From IMG/VR virus record IMGVR_UViG_3300037420_000514, positions 1-24,213 of that record: a stretch of 24,213 nt of DNA, one strand, 5' to 3'. A program made the translations under genes and the position numbers. This stretch comes from a virus (Duplodnaviria; Caudoviricetes). Below the pieces are notes generated by a model. It made no database searches, was not told the origin of the DNA, and was given only the letters and a program-made list of their open reading frames with translations. This document shows, piece after piece, positions 2,770 to 24,213 of this stretch. Position 1 is the first letter of the stretch. Every line of letters begins with the position of its first letter.

Positions 2770-2796
2770 TGACAAAGTATGGAAAGGAGGGTCCGC

Positions 2797-4340
2797 ATGT
2801 CGCAGATCAACTTTAAATGGAAACAGCAAGCCCGCCAAATGACGTTTCTGCGTGCAGCGGGCCTTTCTTATGCCTTAGAGGGTGGTACTCCCCAGCCTGC
2901 CAAAGCCAAGGTTATTGCCTATGGCGGCGCCGCTGGGGGAGGTTAGGTAAGAGTGATGCTCTTATCATGGGTGCGATTATTGCGTGTCTCACGTATGAAG
3001 GGATTGCCGTGGGCTATTTCCGCCGCAAGTTCACGCAATTGGAGGGTGCCGGTGGTGCCATCATGCGTTCATCCATGTTATTAGGTCCCTTAGTCGAGAA
3101 AAAGCTGGTCAAATGGAACGGTTCACTGTACAGGTGGACCTTTTTTAATGGCAGCGTGATTCAATTCGCCCATTTAAACACCGAGGATGATGTACAAAAC
3201 TATCAATCTCAGCAATTTGACATCATCTGTTTTGATGAAGCGACCCACTTTAGCCGTTTTCAGTATCGTTACATGCTGTCCCGGAACCGTTCCAACACGA
3301 AAGCCATGCCGCGCCCTTTCATTATGATGGGGACCAACCCTGGCGGAATCGGCCATACGTGGTTCAAAGACGAGTTTGTGAGAATCGGAGAACCGGAACA
3401 GGTCCATATGGTAGAAGTGGAGCCTGGACGGTACGAGGAACACCTATTCATCCCTGCCAAACTGTCCGATAATGCGGCGCTGGAGGAACGGGACCCGGAA
3501 TATCGGAAGAACCTGGAGAACCAGCCCGAGCACATCCGGCGGCAGCTCCTGGAGGGTGACTGGGATGCGGTGGACGGCGTGGCCTTTCCGGAATGGCGGC
3601 AGGCCATCCATATTATTGACCCGTTTGAGATACCGGAGGAATGGGTGCGGTTCCGGTCTTTGGACTGGGGCTATGCGAAGCCGTATGCCTGCCATTGGTT
3701 TGCGGTGGATTATGACGGCCGTCTGTACTGCTACCGCGAACTGTACGGCTGGGGCGGCCAAGCGGACAAAGGCTCGAAAGAGGACCCGTCTGACGTGGCC
3801 CAAAAGATATGGGAAGCGGAACACTGGCAGGATGAAAACGGCAAATGGCACGGGGAGCATATCCATGATGCTGTGGCGGACGATGCAATTTTTGGCGGCC
3901 GTCAAGATAACAGCAAGGATATAGCGGAGCAATTTGCTGATGCCTTTATCGCGCTTGATAAAAAGCATGGCACCAAAAGCACGTTATGGCGGCGTGTGGG
4001 CAAAGGGCCGAAATCCCGGATTAGCGGACGCCTGGAGCTGCACCACCGCCTGAAATGGGAGAAGGACGAACGGGGAGAATGGACCGGAGAACGCCCGATG
4101 CTGGTATTTTTCAAGAATGCTAGGCACATTATCCGTACCCTGCCGGAACTTCTGAATGACGAGACAAACTGGGAAGATGTTGACACCGAGATGGAGGACC
4201 ACGCCTACGATAGTGTCAGATACGGATGTCAATCACGGCCTCTGACCACCAAAGCAAAACGACCGGAACCGTCTTTGATTAAGCGCCATAAGGACCGCTT
4301 ATCGAAAGAGCGGGTGTTTAAACGCGCCCGGATTATGTAA
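2797..4340 (+). CDS. terL: Terminase large subunit, reading frame interrupted in Walker A; probable join(2797..2943,2949..4340), 512 aa
   Basis: RBS AAGGAGG at 2784-2790 and ATG 2797 give MSQINFKW...VIAYGGAAGGG then TAG (2944-2946). The other frame continues KSDALI...; Walker B ICFDEA, GTNPGG, nuclease motifs SLDWGY and EDHAYDSVRY. The track N-terminus (2817-2945) is off-frame. Confidence 0.92.
2935..2966 (+). other. Candidate translational recoding site (matched GGT codons around a TAG stop, G-run, downstream hairpin)
   Basis: GGG GGA GGT TAG GT AAG, with a 9-bp hairpin GGTAAGAGT-GAT-GCTCTTATC at 2946-2966. Confidence 0.5.
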
Positions 4341-8055: not shown

Positions 8056-9465
8056 ATGGCATGGTTAAATATGACCGCTGCATCCGAAGCCTTAAAGATC
8101 AACTATCTTCCGGCATTGCGATACCAGCTAAACACAGCGAACCCGATTCTATCGGTAATTGAAAGAAACTCTGAAAGTGTAGTAGGTTCAGAGGTTAGGA
8201 TGGCCCTTAGATACGGCCGTCAAGGCGGCGTGGGCAACCGCGCAGAGGACGGAATTTTGCCTCAGCCTAACAGCCGTAAAACAAAGCAGGCAAAGTTCGA
8301 AACAAAGAACTTGTTTGCTAGAATCCAAATCTCAGACAAAACGATGAAAGCCTCCCGTTCCCGTGACGGCGCGTTCGTTAGTTTGCTAGAGGCGGAATTA
8401 GAGGACGCACAAGCAGACGCCAAGGATATGATGGCCCGCCAGGTATTCGGCGATGGCACAGGAAAATTGGCAACGTTCTCCGCTGCCACGACTCAGAACA
8501 CTCTGACCGTATCCAGCACGCAATACTTTGTCGAGGGCATGTTCATTGACATCATGGACAACGCCAACTCCGTGAAAGTATCCCAGCGCGAAATCACAGC
8601 GGTGGACGATGTGGCCGGAACGATCACGATTTCCGGTGCAGCGGTGACGACTGTTTCGACTGACTATGCGGTTCTTTATGGCAACTACAACCAAGAGCTG
8701 ACTGGATTTGGGGCGGTGTTCCAAAATGACAACACCATTTACGGCATCAACCGTGCGCAAAACAAGTGGTTCAACCCAACATTAAAATCAAGCGTGGGCG
8801 CGATTTCTGAAGTCGGCATCCAGCAATTGATTGATGATGTGGACCGCAAAGCGGGGGCGAAAACAAACTTCCTGCTTTCTTCTTACGGCGTTCGCCGCGC
8901 GTACCAAGACTTGCTTTTGGCTACGAAGCGTACAACAGACGTCATGAAATTAAAAGGCGGCTATGAAACCCTAACGTTCAACGGAATGCCGTTTGCGGTT
9001 GACAAGTATGCTCCGGCAGGGACTTTATACGGCCTTGACCTTTCCACTTGGAACCTGTACCACATCGAGGACTGGAACTGGTTAGAAGAGGACGGCGCGG
9101 TTCTTAATCGTGTGGCAGACCGTCCGGTTTGGGAAGCTTCGATGGTTTAAGTATTAGACCCTATATGAAGCGATTCGTATAGCAAACCCCTCTAATTGCT
9201 GGGAACCCCTAACGTATAAGACGAGGGCAATCAGCAGCGAAGCCTGTGAAAACAGGAACGTTCAACGACTAGGATTTATTCCGTAGGGCGCAAGGGCGCT
9301 CGAAATGGGGGGCATCTCTAGTAGATGATGATATAGTCTGACCTCTATGGAAACATAGAGAGATTGTACGGAACCGGTGCAATCGTAACATTAGTGCGAT
9401 ACTGCGACCTGGGATGTTCAAAACCAAAAGGCAACTTCATGGCTACAGGCATTACAGAAAGATAA
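8056..9465 (+). CDS. Major capsid protein, spliced: join(8056..9147,9397..9465), 386 aa
   Basis: Position after the scaffold; HK97-fold-like segments (ARQVFGDGTG, IYGINR, LTFNGMPFAVDKYAP). Removing the intron joins ...WEASMV in frame to RYCDLGCSKPKGNFMATGITER*. Confidence 0.88.
9148..9396 (+). mobile_element. Group I self-splicing intron (IA-like, no ORF), 249 nt
   Basis: P AATTGCTGGG 9194-9203, Q AATCAGCAG 9229-9237, R TTCAACGACTA 9261-9271, S GATATAGTC 9330-9338. P1 is GGTT|TAA-GTA-TTA-GACC with U-G at the 5' splice site. P7 GACTA/TAGTC, two extra hairpins between P7 and P3', P8, P9 CTCTATG-GAAA-CATAGAG, terminal G9396, P10 GTATT/GATAC. Confidence 0.93.
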
Positions 9466-20331: not shown

Positions 20332-20862
20332 ATGGTGGATTATCTTTCTTCCCTATCGAAACTGAATGACATGTGGAAACGGCTGCAAGACGCTCCCGCC
20401 ATCGAACAGGACAGCACCCTGCTCATGGACGGGATAACCAACACCGCAGAAGCGGCGGCGGACCGCAGAAGGGCAGAATGGGCGTCTCAGGCGCCTATTG
20501 CTGTTCCGGAGGCCGTAAGTGCCGGACCATCGAAACCATACAGCGGAGGCGGTACGCAGGGCTTTAATCAAGACCTGGCAGCCGCCTTTTCCCGTTCCGG
20601 CTTTCCGGCTGAATGGGCAGGCGCTTTGACGGAACTCGTTAGACGGGAATCGAGCTTCAATCCGAATGCGAAAAACCCGAAATCGACGGCGCACGGCTAC
20701 GCGCAGTTCTTGAACTCGACCCGCGCCAATTACGAAAAGAAAACCGGGCTTTCGTATGACGACCCGGTGAACCAATTAATCATGATGATGCAATACGTCC
20801 AGGACCGATACGGGACGCCGGATGCGGCCTTGTCGTTCTGGGATAAAAATAAATGGTATTAG
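20332..20862 (+). CDS. Lytic transglycosylase (SLT/lysozyme-like) domain protein
   Basis: ELVRRESSFNPNAKNPKSTAHGYAQFL...YVQDRYG....AL.FW....WY with catalytic Glu in the ES motif. Confidence 0.85.
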   Translation: MVDYLSSLSKLNDMWKRLQDAPAIEQDSTLLMDGITNTAEAAADRRRAEWASQAPIAVPEAVSAGPSKPYSGGGTQGFNQDLAAAFSRSGFPAEWAGALTELVRRESSFNPNAKNPKSTAHGYAQFLNSTRANYEKKTGLSYDDPVNQLIMMMQYVQDRYGTPDAALSFWDKNKWY

Positions 20863-20872
20863 GGGTGTGGAT

Positions 20873-21484
20873 ATGAACCTATCAGACTTCACTTCCCAGC
20901 TAGGAAACTTGTGGGATAAAGGGCTGAACAAGGTGGGAGAGGCGGCGAAACGCTTCCAGCCCACTGTTCAGCAAAAAAGCCTGGAGCTGTTAGGCACCCT
21001 AAAAGACACCACCCAAAAACGGGAAGAACAAAGAAGATCAGAGTGGGCGGCAGGACCGTCCGCTCCTTCTGTTTCTGCCGGATTCGGGATGCCGACCAAC
21101 AATGTGGGCATGGCGGCGGCCAATTTAGGGAGCCAGTATATCGGAAAAAGCAAATACGTGTGGGGCGGCGGACGGTCCGCAGAGGATATCGCAAACGGCC
21201 GTTTTGACTGTTCCGGGTTCGTGAACTATGCGTTCGGCCAAATGGGGATTAACCTCGGCGGCGGCAACACGGACACCATCGCCAAGCAAGGCACCAGGGT
21301 GGACCCAGGCAACATGCAGCCGGGCGATATTGTGTTTTTTGACACGTACAAAAAAAACGGGCATGTGGGGATTTACATGGGCGGAGGAAAATTCATCGGC
21401 GCACAAAGCGGCGGGGTGGGGGTAGCTGACATGTCAGACGGCTATTTCGCCAAAAAGTTTGCTGGATATGTAGTCCGTGTCTAA
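20873..21484 (+). CDS. NlpC/P60 (C40) peptidoglycan endopeptidase
   Basis: YVWGG...FDCSGFV...QPGDIVFF...HVGIY; start moved to ATG 20873 after GGGGTG. Confidence 0.9.
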   Translation: MNLSDFTSQLGNLWDKGLNKVGEAAKRFQPTVQQKSLELLGTLKDTTQKREEQRRSEWAAGPSAPSVSAGFGMPTNNVGMAAANLGSQYIGKSKYVWGGGRSAEDIANGRFDCSGFVNYAFGQMGINLGGGNTDTIAKQGTRVDPGNMQPGDIVFFDTYKKNGHVGIYMGGGKFIGAQSGGVGVADMSDGYFAKKFAGYVVRV

Positions 21485-21496
21485 GGAGTGGAGTAA

Positions 21497-24213
21497 ATGG
21501 CGTACAACAGTAAAAACGACGAAGAATTACAGAGGTATATAGAATACCTGAAAGAACGCATGAACCGGCCGGATTACCAGCCAAAGAACTTATATCAGCC
21601 ACCGGCGAAACCGAAATCGGTTACGGTGAAGCAGGATACATCGAAAAAACATACGCTTTTAGACACCCTGAAAGACAGCTACAAGCGGGCGCAAGGGGAT
21701 AACGGAAAATGGGATTTAGGCGATGTGGGCCGGATGGTCAACTCCGATTATAACCCGTTTATGTCACCGACGCTAAGAATGCTTCAAGGGGCGATCAATC
21801 CCAACGATGCCAAACAATCCACCGGCTCGAACGGATTCTTAAAACAGTCCGGAGCAAGCCTTGTGGCCGGAACCGGGGATTTGGTCAAAGGACTAGGCGG
21901 AACGGCGCAATGGCTTTCAGACAAAGGAATTGGCAATCAATTTACCGCAGATTTAGGGGAGAAACTCTCCGATTTCGCCCAGGATAAGATGATCGACCCG
22001 TATGAAATGCCGACCTATGAAGGGGAATTCGGCTGGAAAACATTCGCGGACCCACGATTCTATTCCTCCAGTGTCGCACGGAGCATTCCGTTTGCCGCAA
22101 GCATGTTCATTCCAGGTATGGCCGGAGCGAAAGCGGGTGCCGCCATCGGGGGAGCTGCCGCAAACGGCATGAAACTCGGAGCCATCGGCAAGAACGTCCT
22201 GCGTTTAGTGGGCGGAGGTTTAGGCGCACACGCAGCGACCGGTCCGATGGAAGCGGCCTTTGAAGCCCAGGATGTGTACCATCAGGCATTAGAGGCAGGA
22301 CACGACGAAAAAACCGCTGACCAAATGGCGACCCAAGCGTTTTGGGATAACGAAAAAGTCTTAGCCGCGTCTCAAACACCGGAATTCATGATGATGTTCG
22401 GACCGTTATTGCGAAATAGTCCAGCCGGAAGTGTCGCCTCCAGCTTACTCAGCCGGATTGGCAAAGCAACAGGTGCCATCGCCGGTTCTGCCGCATTAGA
22501 GGGCGGGCAGGAATACGTCCAGCAAGGGATACAGGATAAAGCGCTTGGCAAGACGGACAGCATGTTTAAGCCTGCCGATATGAATTCAGCATTAGAAGCA
22601 GGAGCCGTCGGTGCGTTACTCGGCGGAGTGATGGCGGGGGCGGGCCGTTTTACGGAAGGGCGTCACCCAAACAATCCGACCAATCCAAACAATCAGCAAC
22701 CAAATAATCAGCAACAACCAAATACTCAGCAGGCGCCAAATCAACAACCGAACCAACAGCAGGCATCAAATAATCAACAGCAACCGAATACTCAGCAACA
22801 GCCAACCCAGCAGAACCAACAACAAGCGCCGAACCAGCAACAACCGACCCAAAAGGCACCGAATCAGCAACAGCCGACCTGGCAGCAACAATGGCAGCAA
22901 GCCCAGCAGGCCCTTGGCGGAGCGGACCCGCAAACGGTCCTTCGAAATAATATCCGCCAGCGTTTGTCCGCCGACTTGCAGGATGCCGTGGACTTCACGC
23001 GCGATCAGCTGGAAGCAGATAACCGTTACACGCCGGAAGAAATCGAGGATAAACTCGACGAATTTATCTTGCAACAGCCGGAAGGCCAAACACTGTTGGC
23101 GGAAGAATTTGCCCGCCTGAATGAACGGGTGAACCAAACCCAGGCGCCAACCAGCCCAACCCAGGCAGAAGCGGCAGTCCAGCAGGCTCAGCAAGCGAAT
23201 GCAGACCTGAATGCCCAGCTTCAACAGAACTTACAGCAGTTACAGCAAGCCGCGCAGGCCCAGCAAACCCAGGTGAATCAAGTGGTGGGGCAAGCGGACC
23301 AAATGCAACAGCAAGTGATGGGGCAACAACCACAAAAGACCGGCCAATTATCCGAGGACGCCGAAGGTATCGCCAATCTATTCAATGCGATGGGGTCTGG
23401 ATTCAAGGAAGCGGCAGACAAGCAACGAAATGAATTGCTGAAAAAAGACGGCTATTTGGAATATAAAAATCCCGCCGCGATTGATTTGTTCCGCCAGCAA
23501 AACCAAGGGTGGAGAGAAGAACCGCAGGCAGACGGCACGATTCGTTTTTATCCGCCGAAAGAAGCGGAACAAGCTGCCGATTTCCAAAAAGGCGATACGA
23601 TCACCAACGCATCCACCGGAGCTGTAGGGACTTATGACGGGGAAGCGAACCCGAAGAACGACAAACTATTTAAAGTCACCTTGCCGGACGGGAAAGTGCA
23701 GTTTTGGTCTAAGGGCAATATGCGCAAAGGCGATGTGTCCAGCAAGTTAGTGGAACCAAAAGACTTTGGGGATGTAGAACCGGATACAAGCGACTTAACC
23801 GAGGAAGAACAAGCGGCATTCCAAGCGGAACAAGAAAAACAAAAAACAGACCGCGAAGGGGAGACATTCCCGCTCGGTTCCAAGGTTAATGTCAAAAATT
23901 TAAGCGGCGAGTTCGAAGTCATGAAAAACCACGACGATGCGACCTTGACCGTAAAAGGGCCAAAAGGTAATGAGTTTACTGTCGGCCGTGCCGGGGCGAC
24001 ACCGGTACAGAAAGAAGCACCGAAACAGGAAGCGCCGAAAACAAAAGACGAAATGGAACGCAACCATCCAAATAAAGCGAAATTGTATGTTGGGGATAAA
24101 GTCGTCTTGAAGTTTACGAAGAAAAACGAGCCGCTTATCGTGGTATCAAAAGAAGATACGGGCTTTATGTCGCGATATGCAGACGAACCGCAAGGAAAAC
24201 CGTTTTTTGCCTA
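21497..24213 (+). CDS. Large putative ejection/DNA-delivery protein, partial (>900 aa, runs off the window)
   Basis: RBS then ATG 21497 (MAYNSKNDEELQRYIEYL...). Open at every segment I translated and absent from the ORF track, consistent with no stop before the window end. Gly/Ala hydrophobic segments, a Q/N/P tract, small beta-barrel-like units. Confidence 0.8.
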   Translation, partial: MAYNSKNDEELQRYIEYLKERMNRPDYQPKNLYQPPAKPKSVTVKQDTSKKHTLLDTLKDSYKRAQGDNGKWDLGDVGRMVNSDYNPFMSPTLRMLQGAINPNDAKQSTGSNGFLKQSGASLVAGTGDLVKGLGGTAQWLSDKGIGNQFTADLGEKLSDFAQDKMIDPYEMPTYEGEFGWKTFADPRFYSSSVARSIPFAASMFIPGMAGAKAGAAIGGAAANGMKLGAIGKNVLRLVGGGLGAHAATGPMEAAFEAQDVYHQALEAGHDEKTADQMATQAFWDNEKVLAASQTPEFMMMFGPLLRNSPAGSVASSLLSRIGKATGAIAGSAALEGGQEYVQQGIQDKALGKTDSMFKPADMNSALEAGAVGALLGGVMAGAGRFTEGRHPNNPTNPNNQQPNNQQQPNTQQAPNQQPNQQQASNNQQQPNTQQQPTQQNQQQAPNQQQPTQKAPNQQQPTWQQQWQQAQQALGGADPQTVLRNNIRQRLSADLQDAVDFTRDQLEADNRYTPEEIEDKLDEFILQQPEGQTLLAEEFARLNERVNQTQAPTSPTQAEAAVQQAQQANADLNAQLQQNLQQLQQAAQAQQTQVNQVVGQADQMQQQVMGQQPQKTGQLSEDAEGIANLFNAMGSGFKEAADKQRNELLKKDGYLEYKNPAAIDLFRQQNQGWREEPQADGTIRFYPPKEAEQAADFQKGDTITNASTGAVGTYDGEANPKNDKLFKVTLPDGKVQFWSKGNMRKGDVSSKLVEPKDFGDVEPDTSDLTEEEQAAFQAEQEKQKTDREGETFPLGSKVNVKNLSGEFEVMKNHDDATLTVKGPKGNEFTVGRAGATPVQKEAPKQEAPKTKDEMERNHPNKAKLYVGDKVVLKFTKKNEPLIVVSKEDTGFMSRYADEPQGKPFFA
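22666..22910 (+). repeat. Low-complexity Q/N/P coding repeats
   Basis: Encodes NPNNQQPNNQQQPNTQQAPNQQPNQQQASNNQQQPNTQQQPTQQNQQQAPNQQQPTQKAPNQQQPTWQQQWQQ. Confidence 0.8.

Follow-up and report, generated by a model that had tools for sequence, protein, structure and literature searches.

How does a phage produce its large terminase when the gene is broken by a stop codon inside the Walker A motif and the rest of the protein is encoded in another reading frame? This question is raised by the terL gene of the virus record IMGVR_UViG_3300037420_000514, whose 24,213 nt were analysed as a whole (hereafter, the window); the record is about 41% complete and carries the head-tail module, with the genes for the portal and major head protein coming after terL. 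The parts of the gene that matter for the break are as follows.

2783..2792, + strand: Shine-Dalgarno sequence of terL, GGAAAGGAGG, just before the ATG at 2797
2797..2943, + strand: terL ORF1, 49 codons ending in the Walker A sequence YGGAAGGG, where 16 of 17 homologous short proteins stop at the same residue
2941..2943, + strand: GGT, the final sense codon of ORF1 and the putative take-off codon
2944..2948, + strand: 5-nt coding gap TAGGT, comprising the in-frame TAG (2944-2946) and the putative landing GGT (2946-2948)
2949..4340, + strand: terL ORF2, 463 codons that begin with the Walker A Lys (resume codon AAG), running to the stop and encoding the remaining ATPase and the nuclease

The second GGT overlaps the G of the TAG stop, and ORF2 begins with AAG AGT GAT (KSD) in a frame that differs from that of ORF1 and stays open to 4340. 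ORF2 belongs to Terminase_6N (PF03237, 51 bits against a cut-off of 22). The coordinates and the translation confirm the description in the first-pass annotation of a 49-codon ORF with a strong ribosome-binding site that ends in YGGAAGGG, the remainder lying in another frame. Its statement that a 5-nt skip restores GGAAGGGKS was borne out as well: close relatives of this terL (68-81% identity) are uninterrupted proteins of 510-513 aa carrying exactly that motif, so that precisely 5 nt are extra here. A search of the PDB by sequence with the terminase gave no match.

The stretch is contained in 11 DNA sequencing runs, no RNA run being listed, and in all four of the runs compared the contigs crossed the junction without an indel or a substitution, at depths of 17.6-75.7; these were contigs, not reads, possibly including the source of this DNA, and rare variants would be invisible in them. 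The unchanged junction in the contigs of four runs, together with its recurrence in relatives, led to rejection of the assembly error that had been put forward as a mundane alternative. Stop-codon reassignment was also rejected, given that TAG terminates 9 of the 29 ORFs listed and that most of the gaps described below are out of frame; no tRNA genes were found within the 24,213-nt window. The break in terL is real and conserved. Since the record is only about 41% complete, a second, intact terL may be present elsewhere in this phage.

Uniformly continuous relatives had been named beforehand, together with a lack of full-length TerL, as a reason to abandon recoding, and they are not what was found: L003, which is about 72% identical to this terL and was found by protein homology and not by a junction pattern, reads GGT-TAGGC-AAG, and many other terminases are split at the same codon. 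When IMG/VR was scanned for 1-31 extra bases within the motif, with the stop left free, 12 loci were obtained, and in 12 of 12 a stop stood immediately after the third Gly. A TRR triplet was demanded in the other scans for split genes in IMG/VR, GTDB, and the metagenomes. In IMG/VR, the third Walker A Gly followed by TRR gave 73 matches, 65 of them terminases, and the intact motif approximately 19,000 matches (estimated from 1/64 parts), all 120 of those sampled being terminases; the split share of the motif class is thus about 0.3%. Moving the stop along the same motif in IMG/VR gave seven matches but no terminase when it followed the Walker A Lys, and no match at all for TAA or TAG after the Ser/Thr. 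The metagenome scan contributed 7 terminases among 14 matches. At least three were recognised among the 120 listed of about 400 GTDB stretches, most of which were chance matches, namely L200 (from a Pelotomaculum MAG), L255, and L274; a further GTDB terminase, L197 (Megasphaera MAG), was recognised by eye and is cut by its contig end. Scanning of viral contigs with a single protein gave two distant loci only, the alignment-based scan gave distant relatives among the matches listed, and similarity searches of the phage collection at the DNA and protein level did not turn up any cultured phage that has this junction or a close split relative. Several short non-terminase phage genes (L130, L158, L421-L427) naturally end in YGGAAGGG or YGGAAGGGK and were false positives of the scans.

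Pooling of the records with a true stop gave 88 terminases out of 159, as judged by a profile of intact homologs among the matches listed, where one contig may appear more than once. These 88 records represent at least 61 distinct sequences, which fall into at least 43 clusters at 70% identity and at least 12 at 50%, and the split sequences are 27-70% identical to this terL. In 87 of the 88, reading resumes with K-S/T in the frame of the profile (the exception, L129, has Asn-Thr); this resumption is encoded by 18 different hexamers, and no internal Met is common to the set.

The protein databases carry the same signature, without recourse to any DNA motif. A search with the 49-aa ORF1 peptide returned 10 of 10 candidates, and after the addition of cluster members, 16 of 17 short ORF1 homologs proved to end exactly at GGAAGGG and one a Gly earlier; P0144, which is uninterrupted at the site, and P0151, an unrelated EF-G, were left out of this count. 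The single deviating fragment, P0140, ends in GGAAGG, one Gly before all the others. Judging from equal lengths of their longest contigs, five ORF1 fragments appear to pair with N-truncated terminases (P0137/P0125, P0138/P0012, P0142/P0123, P0135/P0127, and P0145/P0019), and a sixth such pair, P0150/P0015, was confirmed on DNA (L003, L420). Because of this pairing of fragments with truncated terminases, the sister proteins of this terL on the tree (P0012, P0009, and P0123-P0125; support 0.89) are likely to be split as well. In P0046 and P0116, the N-termini of the database terminases resemble wrong-frame Walker A codons followed by KSD, and both are likely further misannotated split genes. Intein or endonuclease domains were seen in six other terminase relatives (P0017, P0048, P0056, P0065, P0072, and P0078) at sites other than the Walker A motif.

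The gaps themselves, each counted once per 70% cluster (56 units), were found to measure 1 nt (6 units), 4 nt (8), 5 nt (22), 6 nt (12), 7, 8, and 9 nt (2 each), and 59 nt (2); they are distributed over the three frames as 14/16/26 and open with TAG in 22 units, TGA in 19, and TAA in 15. Gap length and frame vary even inside 70% clusters. The triplet preceding the Lys codon, scored in 50 units, encodes Gly in 26, Ser in 14, Arg in 5, Asp in 4, and Cys in 1, and its middle base is G in all 42 gaps of 5 nt or more. Among 100 matches to homolog motifs, 97 are properly framed (three are wrong-frame or spurious), and not one of these 97 carries extra loop residues. As the triplet is not a Gly codon in about half of the units, reading through the gap would break the Gly-Lys pair there, besides making the loop longer in every unit, and only skipping restores it. 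At the same time, this triplet is the best or tied-best match to tRNA-Gly within offsets +1 to +12 in 47 of 48 units (2000 sets of random inserts: mean 17.6, maximum 29), L274 alone failing even this tied-best test, and the third base of the triplet varies together with the take-off codon (p=0.015; the split clusters are kin, so that this and the other p-values given below overstate independence). The 24 non-Gly landing triplets of the 50 (AGC, GAC, CGA, AGT, and others) match tRNA-Gly at two positions only. A set in which non-Gly triplets are nonetheless the best tRNA-Gly matches cannot be explained by one frameshift or by readthrough and can be explained by a hop. The earlier proposal of a +5 hop between Gly codons across UAG is thus well supported by comparative evidence, and, judging from these sequence comparisons, ribosomes most probably make full-length TerL by hopping over the 5-nt stop-led gap.

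Two kinds of gap lie at the ends of this range. Five loci (L101, L131, L139, L140, and L165) carry a 59-nt hairpin gap of a size resembling that of T4 gene 60 at the same Walker A codon (GGG-TGA...GGT-AAA), the 3' end of which, CAAGGT, is identical to that of the 9-nt gap in L096. The 1-nt gaps read GGG-T-AAG or GGC-T-AAR (L108, L109, L134, and L162; L083, L090, L417, and L152); they are kept within a family under purifying selection and are candidates for natural +1 shifts at a stop, not sequencing errors.

Three elements of the RNA around the junction could serve as signals for the proposed hop.

2888..2941, + strand: predicted upstream stem-loop and likely stimulator, in which CUCCCCAGC (2888-2896) pairs with GCUGGGGGAG (2932-2941), reaching up to the take-off codon
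2935..2939, + strand: GGGGG run that ends 6 nt short of the landing codon and supplies GGG as the third codon ahead of the stop; possible hairpin arm and/or internal Shine-Dalgarno sequence
2946..2966, + strand: 9-bp downstream hairpin, -8.3 kcal/mol, with 1 of 200 shuffles as good; not conserved

The predicted upstream fold amounts to -30.8 kcal/mol (z -2.8) in this terL and -34.2 kcal/mol (z -3.7) in L003, against -15.4 kcal/mol (z +0.7) for the same region of the intact relative L429, and a CCCCAGC:GCUGGGG pairing is present in the two split genes, in differing codon registers, and absent in L429. Relative to synonymous shuffles, split genes form more stable folds in the 72 nt leading up to the stop (z -0.87, n=43) than intact genes do (z -0.05, n=116; p=3e-4), for a region that was picked after folds had been seen and that includes the Walker A codons. 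Folding of positions -63 to -12 alone did not distinguish split from intact genes (p=0.28), the pairing of the G run itself showed no significant excess over shuffles (p=0.85), and the upstream stem was not recovered in an RNAalifold consensus of four junctions; the register of this stem shifts between lineages. The peptide [ST]PA, which is able to supply the C run, occurs in 16 of 17 ORF1 fragments versus 5 of 21 intact proteins of the near family, whose members are kin and not independent, and the one exception is this terL, whose C run comes from another register. A GGG codon three codons before the stop was found in 28 of 43 split clusters versus 13 of 120 intact genes and 10 of 50 GC-matched intact genes (p=2e-5 against the split clusters), while at the first two Gly codons of the motif GGG is used by 3/43 and 4/43 split clusters only. 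Synonymous change is low in the 20 codons before the stop (62 of 215 against 368 of 877 downstream in 12 split pairs, p=4e-4), a suppression that was absent from 46 pairs of intact genes (p=0.70). The upstream hairpin and the GGG three codons before the stop are the recurring candidate signals. The downstream hairpin, to which the first-pass annotation had given a part in the hop, does fold here with the stated 9 bp; it is not conserved in the split relatives, so that the comparison of related terL DNA suggested at that stage yields a recurring insertion without a recurring hairpin. As a common signal it was rejected, because split genes are less structured after the landing site (z +0.37, 42 clusters) than intact genes (z -0.33, n=116; p=9e-5).

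The gap might instead be cut from the mRNA by an endonuclease and ligase or by a trans-acting ribozyme, leaving translation to proceed in the ordinary way. Deletion of the bases after GG would yield Gly-Lys whatever the landing triplet and would thereby cover the non-Gly cases; the G two bases before the Lys codon in 42 of 42 gaps of at least 5 nt would suit such a process, and a group I intron is present in the capsid gene of this phage. However, the gaps of 1-9 nt are alike only in their leading in-frame stop, which removal would not need, and four TGAC gaps do not have the G. Group I introns are cut after U and end at G, and by these rules no frame-restoring excision can be drawn here; there is no Rfam match at the junction, the only one in the window being that at 9138-9360 (RF00028). 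Moreover, the homologous case of phiHau3 has been assigned to bypassing in the available text of its report (PMC10732093). RNA removal is therefore considered very unlikely.

Slippage by -1 on the G run, or some other simple frameshift, would join the frames with an added Arg-Leu before Gly-Lys-Ser; the -1 frame is open across the junction, GGGGGA stands before the stop with a hairpin 5 nt later, and the landing codon is indeed a Gly codon in this terL. Against it, no X-XXY-YYZ slippery heptamer is present, none of the 97 framed homolog motifs has added residues, and L092, L146, and L164 have the TAGGT gap but lack the G run. Neither the frame change nor the 3' structure is conserved in the relatives, whose gaps span all three frames and often place Ser, Arg, Asp, or Cys before the Lys: a different frame would be needed in 30 of the 56 units, and in 24 of 50 the Lys would no longer be preceded by Gly. 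The slip on GGGGGA, offered in the first-pass annotation as a second form of recoding, has accordingly been set aside and can be given only a very slight chance.

If the gene were dead, or if the terminase were borrowed from a helper, the gap would be no more than a scar, as had also been suggested for this locus. Splits are rare in the motif class and patchy on the tree, and the virus record is incomplete, which would be in keeping with such an origin. In diverged pairs among the 17 split-gene pairs, however, dN is far below dS downstream of the stop, and upstream as well where it is measurable, for example 0.03 versus 0.51 for L091/L094, 0.02 versus 1.02 for L120/L137, and, upstream of the stop, 0.13 versus 1.46 for this terL and L003. 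Both halves of the split terL are under purifying selection, among genes at saturated synonymous divergence, and both are open. The breaks are confined to one codon, the stretch is present in 11 runs with a depth of 18-76 in the four compared, and long open frames encode the head and tail proteins further downstream, the group I intron aside. Inactivation is disfavoured by these data and must be regarded as highly improbable. Least credible of all is that ORF1 and ORF2 are two separate chains that assemble after re-initiation at a downstream Met. The start of ORF1 is strong and an ATG at 2967 is where gene callers begin ORF2 (P0003), but the Walker A Lys-Ser would be lost, although all 61 distinct sequences that can be resumed retain K-S/T and encode it with differing synonymous codons. 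The position of the first Met varies from 4 to over 99 codons downstream, no Shine-Dalgarno sequence stands at normal spacing before 2967, and the alternative ATG at 2817 has none either and is followed by a stop in L003.

The distribution of the split state was followed on a FastTree phylogeny of 18 split sequences (from the nearest families, out of 61), 90 intact ones, and 16 truncated ones, the last being kept outside the count. Split status changes 7 times on this tree, against a mean of 16.9 and a minimum of 12 in shuffles, which means that the state is inherited within clades and has also been gained or lost several times. The intact P0126 and the apparently split P0127 are identical at 455 of 458 residues after the gap, and, of the 49 residues compared between P0135 and P0126, the 4 that differ are confined to the stretch that holds the 5' arm of the hairpin in this terL. 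The gap and the hairpin arm appear to have been gained or lost repeatedly as a small cassette. It is tentatively proposed, with some reserve, that a cassette of about 60 nt (upstream hairpin, GGG run, and stop-led micro-gap) recombines among terminases and makes the junction between Gly and Lys a natural minimal stop-hop, at which tRNA-Gly lands even on near-cognate triplets.

Among known systems, the closest precedent for the proposed hop is provided by the g6/g7 terminase of phage phiHau3, where the junction follows QRLKGW and reads GGC, then the 10-nt gap TTACTCCGGT, then AAG. We take the KGWGK of phiHau3 to be its Walker A motif; the phiHau3 break lies in the same gene class and at the same junction as here, between the last P-loop Gly and the Lys (KGWG/K). 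In the main text of PMC10732093, the word Walker occurs as an author name only. According to the available part of this source, full-length product is made in Streptomyces, and a UUA->UAA version bypasses in E. coli, where the junction peptide was identified by mass spectrometry (PMC10732093); a stop in place of UUA was therefore functional, and in this terL a stop occurs naturally. The two systems share Gly take-off and landing codons, a gap of few bases, a Shine-Dalgarno-like run, and nearby structure. They differ in that a rare UUA follows the take-off codon in phiHau3, while TAG does so here and TAG, TGA, or TAA in the relatives, and in the TerL family, which is of the GGAAGGGKS type here. 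The matched Gly codons of phiHau3 have a counterpart in the GGT/GGT of this terL; across the wider set, just 26 of 50 units have a Gly codon as landing triplet. As far as the source is available, 3 bypass terminase genes among 100 were described, tied to UUA (phiHau3 and prophages StrepC.1 and S. catenulae; PMC10732093), compared with 43 clusters and gaps of 1-59 nt here.

The parallel with T4 gene 60 that had been drawn at the outset stands for the Gly take-off codon, the UAG next to it, and the presence of structure, although phiHau3 is the nearer precedent. In the accessible parts of the gene 60 reports (10.1101/2022.08.31.505936; 10.1101/2024.12.09.627546; PMC11194080), a matched landing codon is likewise described, as are a 5' stem-loop upstream of the take-off site (predicted only in the present case), a G-rich mini-Shine-Dalgarno sequence 5-7 nt before landing (the putative counterpart here, GGGGG, ends at 2939, with landing at 2946), and insertion at an invariant residue with a patchy spread among relatives. 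The gene 60 gap is, by contrast, one of 50 nt with a take-off stem-loop, against 5 nt without a stem-loop here, and it interrupts a topoisomerase, not a terminase; among the relatives, a gap with a hairpin is seen in the 59-nt L101 family. A nascent-peptide stimulator, another gene 60 feature, would here coincide with the conservation of TerL itself. The main text of 10.1101/2022.08.31.505936, in which the gene 60 cassette is viewed as a shield of a conserved site from nuclease, makes no mention of terminase. Lacking the UUA and the features of the 50-nt gap, this terL is classed as a variant, not a member, of the phiHau3 and gene 60 types.

A third relationship is to the synthetic stop hops and shifty stops of E. 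coli and to RF2 +1 frameshifting, in which, as described in the available parts of PMC5009743 and PMC10732093, matched codons flank the stop and, in RF2, the Shine-Dalgarno geometry is that of the GGG here, which ends 6 nt before the stop. The 6-nt gaps of the present set (e.g., GGT-TAA-GGT) would be textbook in-frame stop hops, and the 1-nt gaps are reminiscent of +1 shifting at stop codons, with the difference that the genes involved here are natural ones, kept by selection. The 2016 review, in its available part, stated that no natural in-frame stop hop was known (PMC5009743). The mostly open literature covered contained no description of gaps that open with a stop in this family of terminases; cases might be listed in the bioRxiv supplements or in the supplement figures of PMC10732093.

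The hop would start with a pause of the ribosome while peptidyl-tRNA-Gly sits on GGU and UAG occupies the A site. The majority of ribosomes would terminate there and release the 49-aa peptide, while in a fraction of them the tRNA would detach, the ribosome would slide by 5 nt, the tRNA would re-pair at the second GGU, and decoding would restart at AAG (Lys). The upstream hairpin, closing behind the ribosome, and/or pairing of GGGGG with the anti-Shine-Dalgarno sequence would be likely to push or hold the ribosome. The accuracy of landing is unexplained by the triplet match, which strictly beats every earlier offset in only 19 of 48 units (null mean 2.6), and 1-nt gaps such as GGC-T-AAG provide a poor re-pairing site. 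The dose of TerL would then follow from the competition between the release factor and hopping, and such a throttle could be tolerated or even useful if, as is supposed, little TerL is needed. A throttle on TerL and a tolerated cassette protecting a conserved site against nuclease are about equally probable as the reason for the split.

Several other features of this genome were recorded. A free-standing HNH_3/His-Me endonuclease gene lies at 1295-1777, 1 kb upstream of terL, and a linked homing endonuclease belongs to the gene 60 type of cassette; HNH genes are common near terL, and a weak single-query search gave no HNH_3 match beside 29 split and 40 intact loci. The 287-nt intergenic stretch before terL (2510-2796) contains CTAGA repeats and A/T runs, and neither PHROG nor Pfam pointed to a small terminase gene in the ORFs upstream of terL. 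The group I intron (RF00028, 104.6 bits, 9138-9360) is located at the 3' end of the major capsid gene, whose ORF at 8056-9150 ends at a TAA near the 5' end of the intron; a short second capsid exon, some 32 codons long (YGTGAIVTLVRYCDL...), is likely to begin at about 9367. At 20332-21484, the listed starts make a lysozyme/SLT ORF and an NlpC/P60 ORF overlap by 41 nt, and the true start of the latter may be a later ATG with a better Shine-Dalgarno sequence. Finally, an open-ended ORF of at least 905 aa (21497-24213) has a weak match to the virion RNA polymerase family (E 4.6e-5).

To our knowledge, natural translational bypassing comprises a handful of cases, namely T4 gene 60 and its homologues, the yeast mitochondrial byps, and three Streptomyces terminases. 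If the proposed hop is correct, dozens of diverse phage lineages would hop across a genuine stop at a single codon position in an essential gene, and the gaps of 1-59 nt would form a natural allelic series joining +1 shifty stops, in-frame stop hops, and long bypasses. Such a series makes it possible to test the minimal signals for take-off and landing and the tolerance of landing to mismatches. Splitting of terL also accounts for a set of database terminases annotated as N-truncated and suggests an unrecognised control point on phage DNA packaging.
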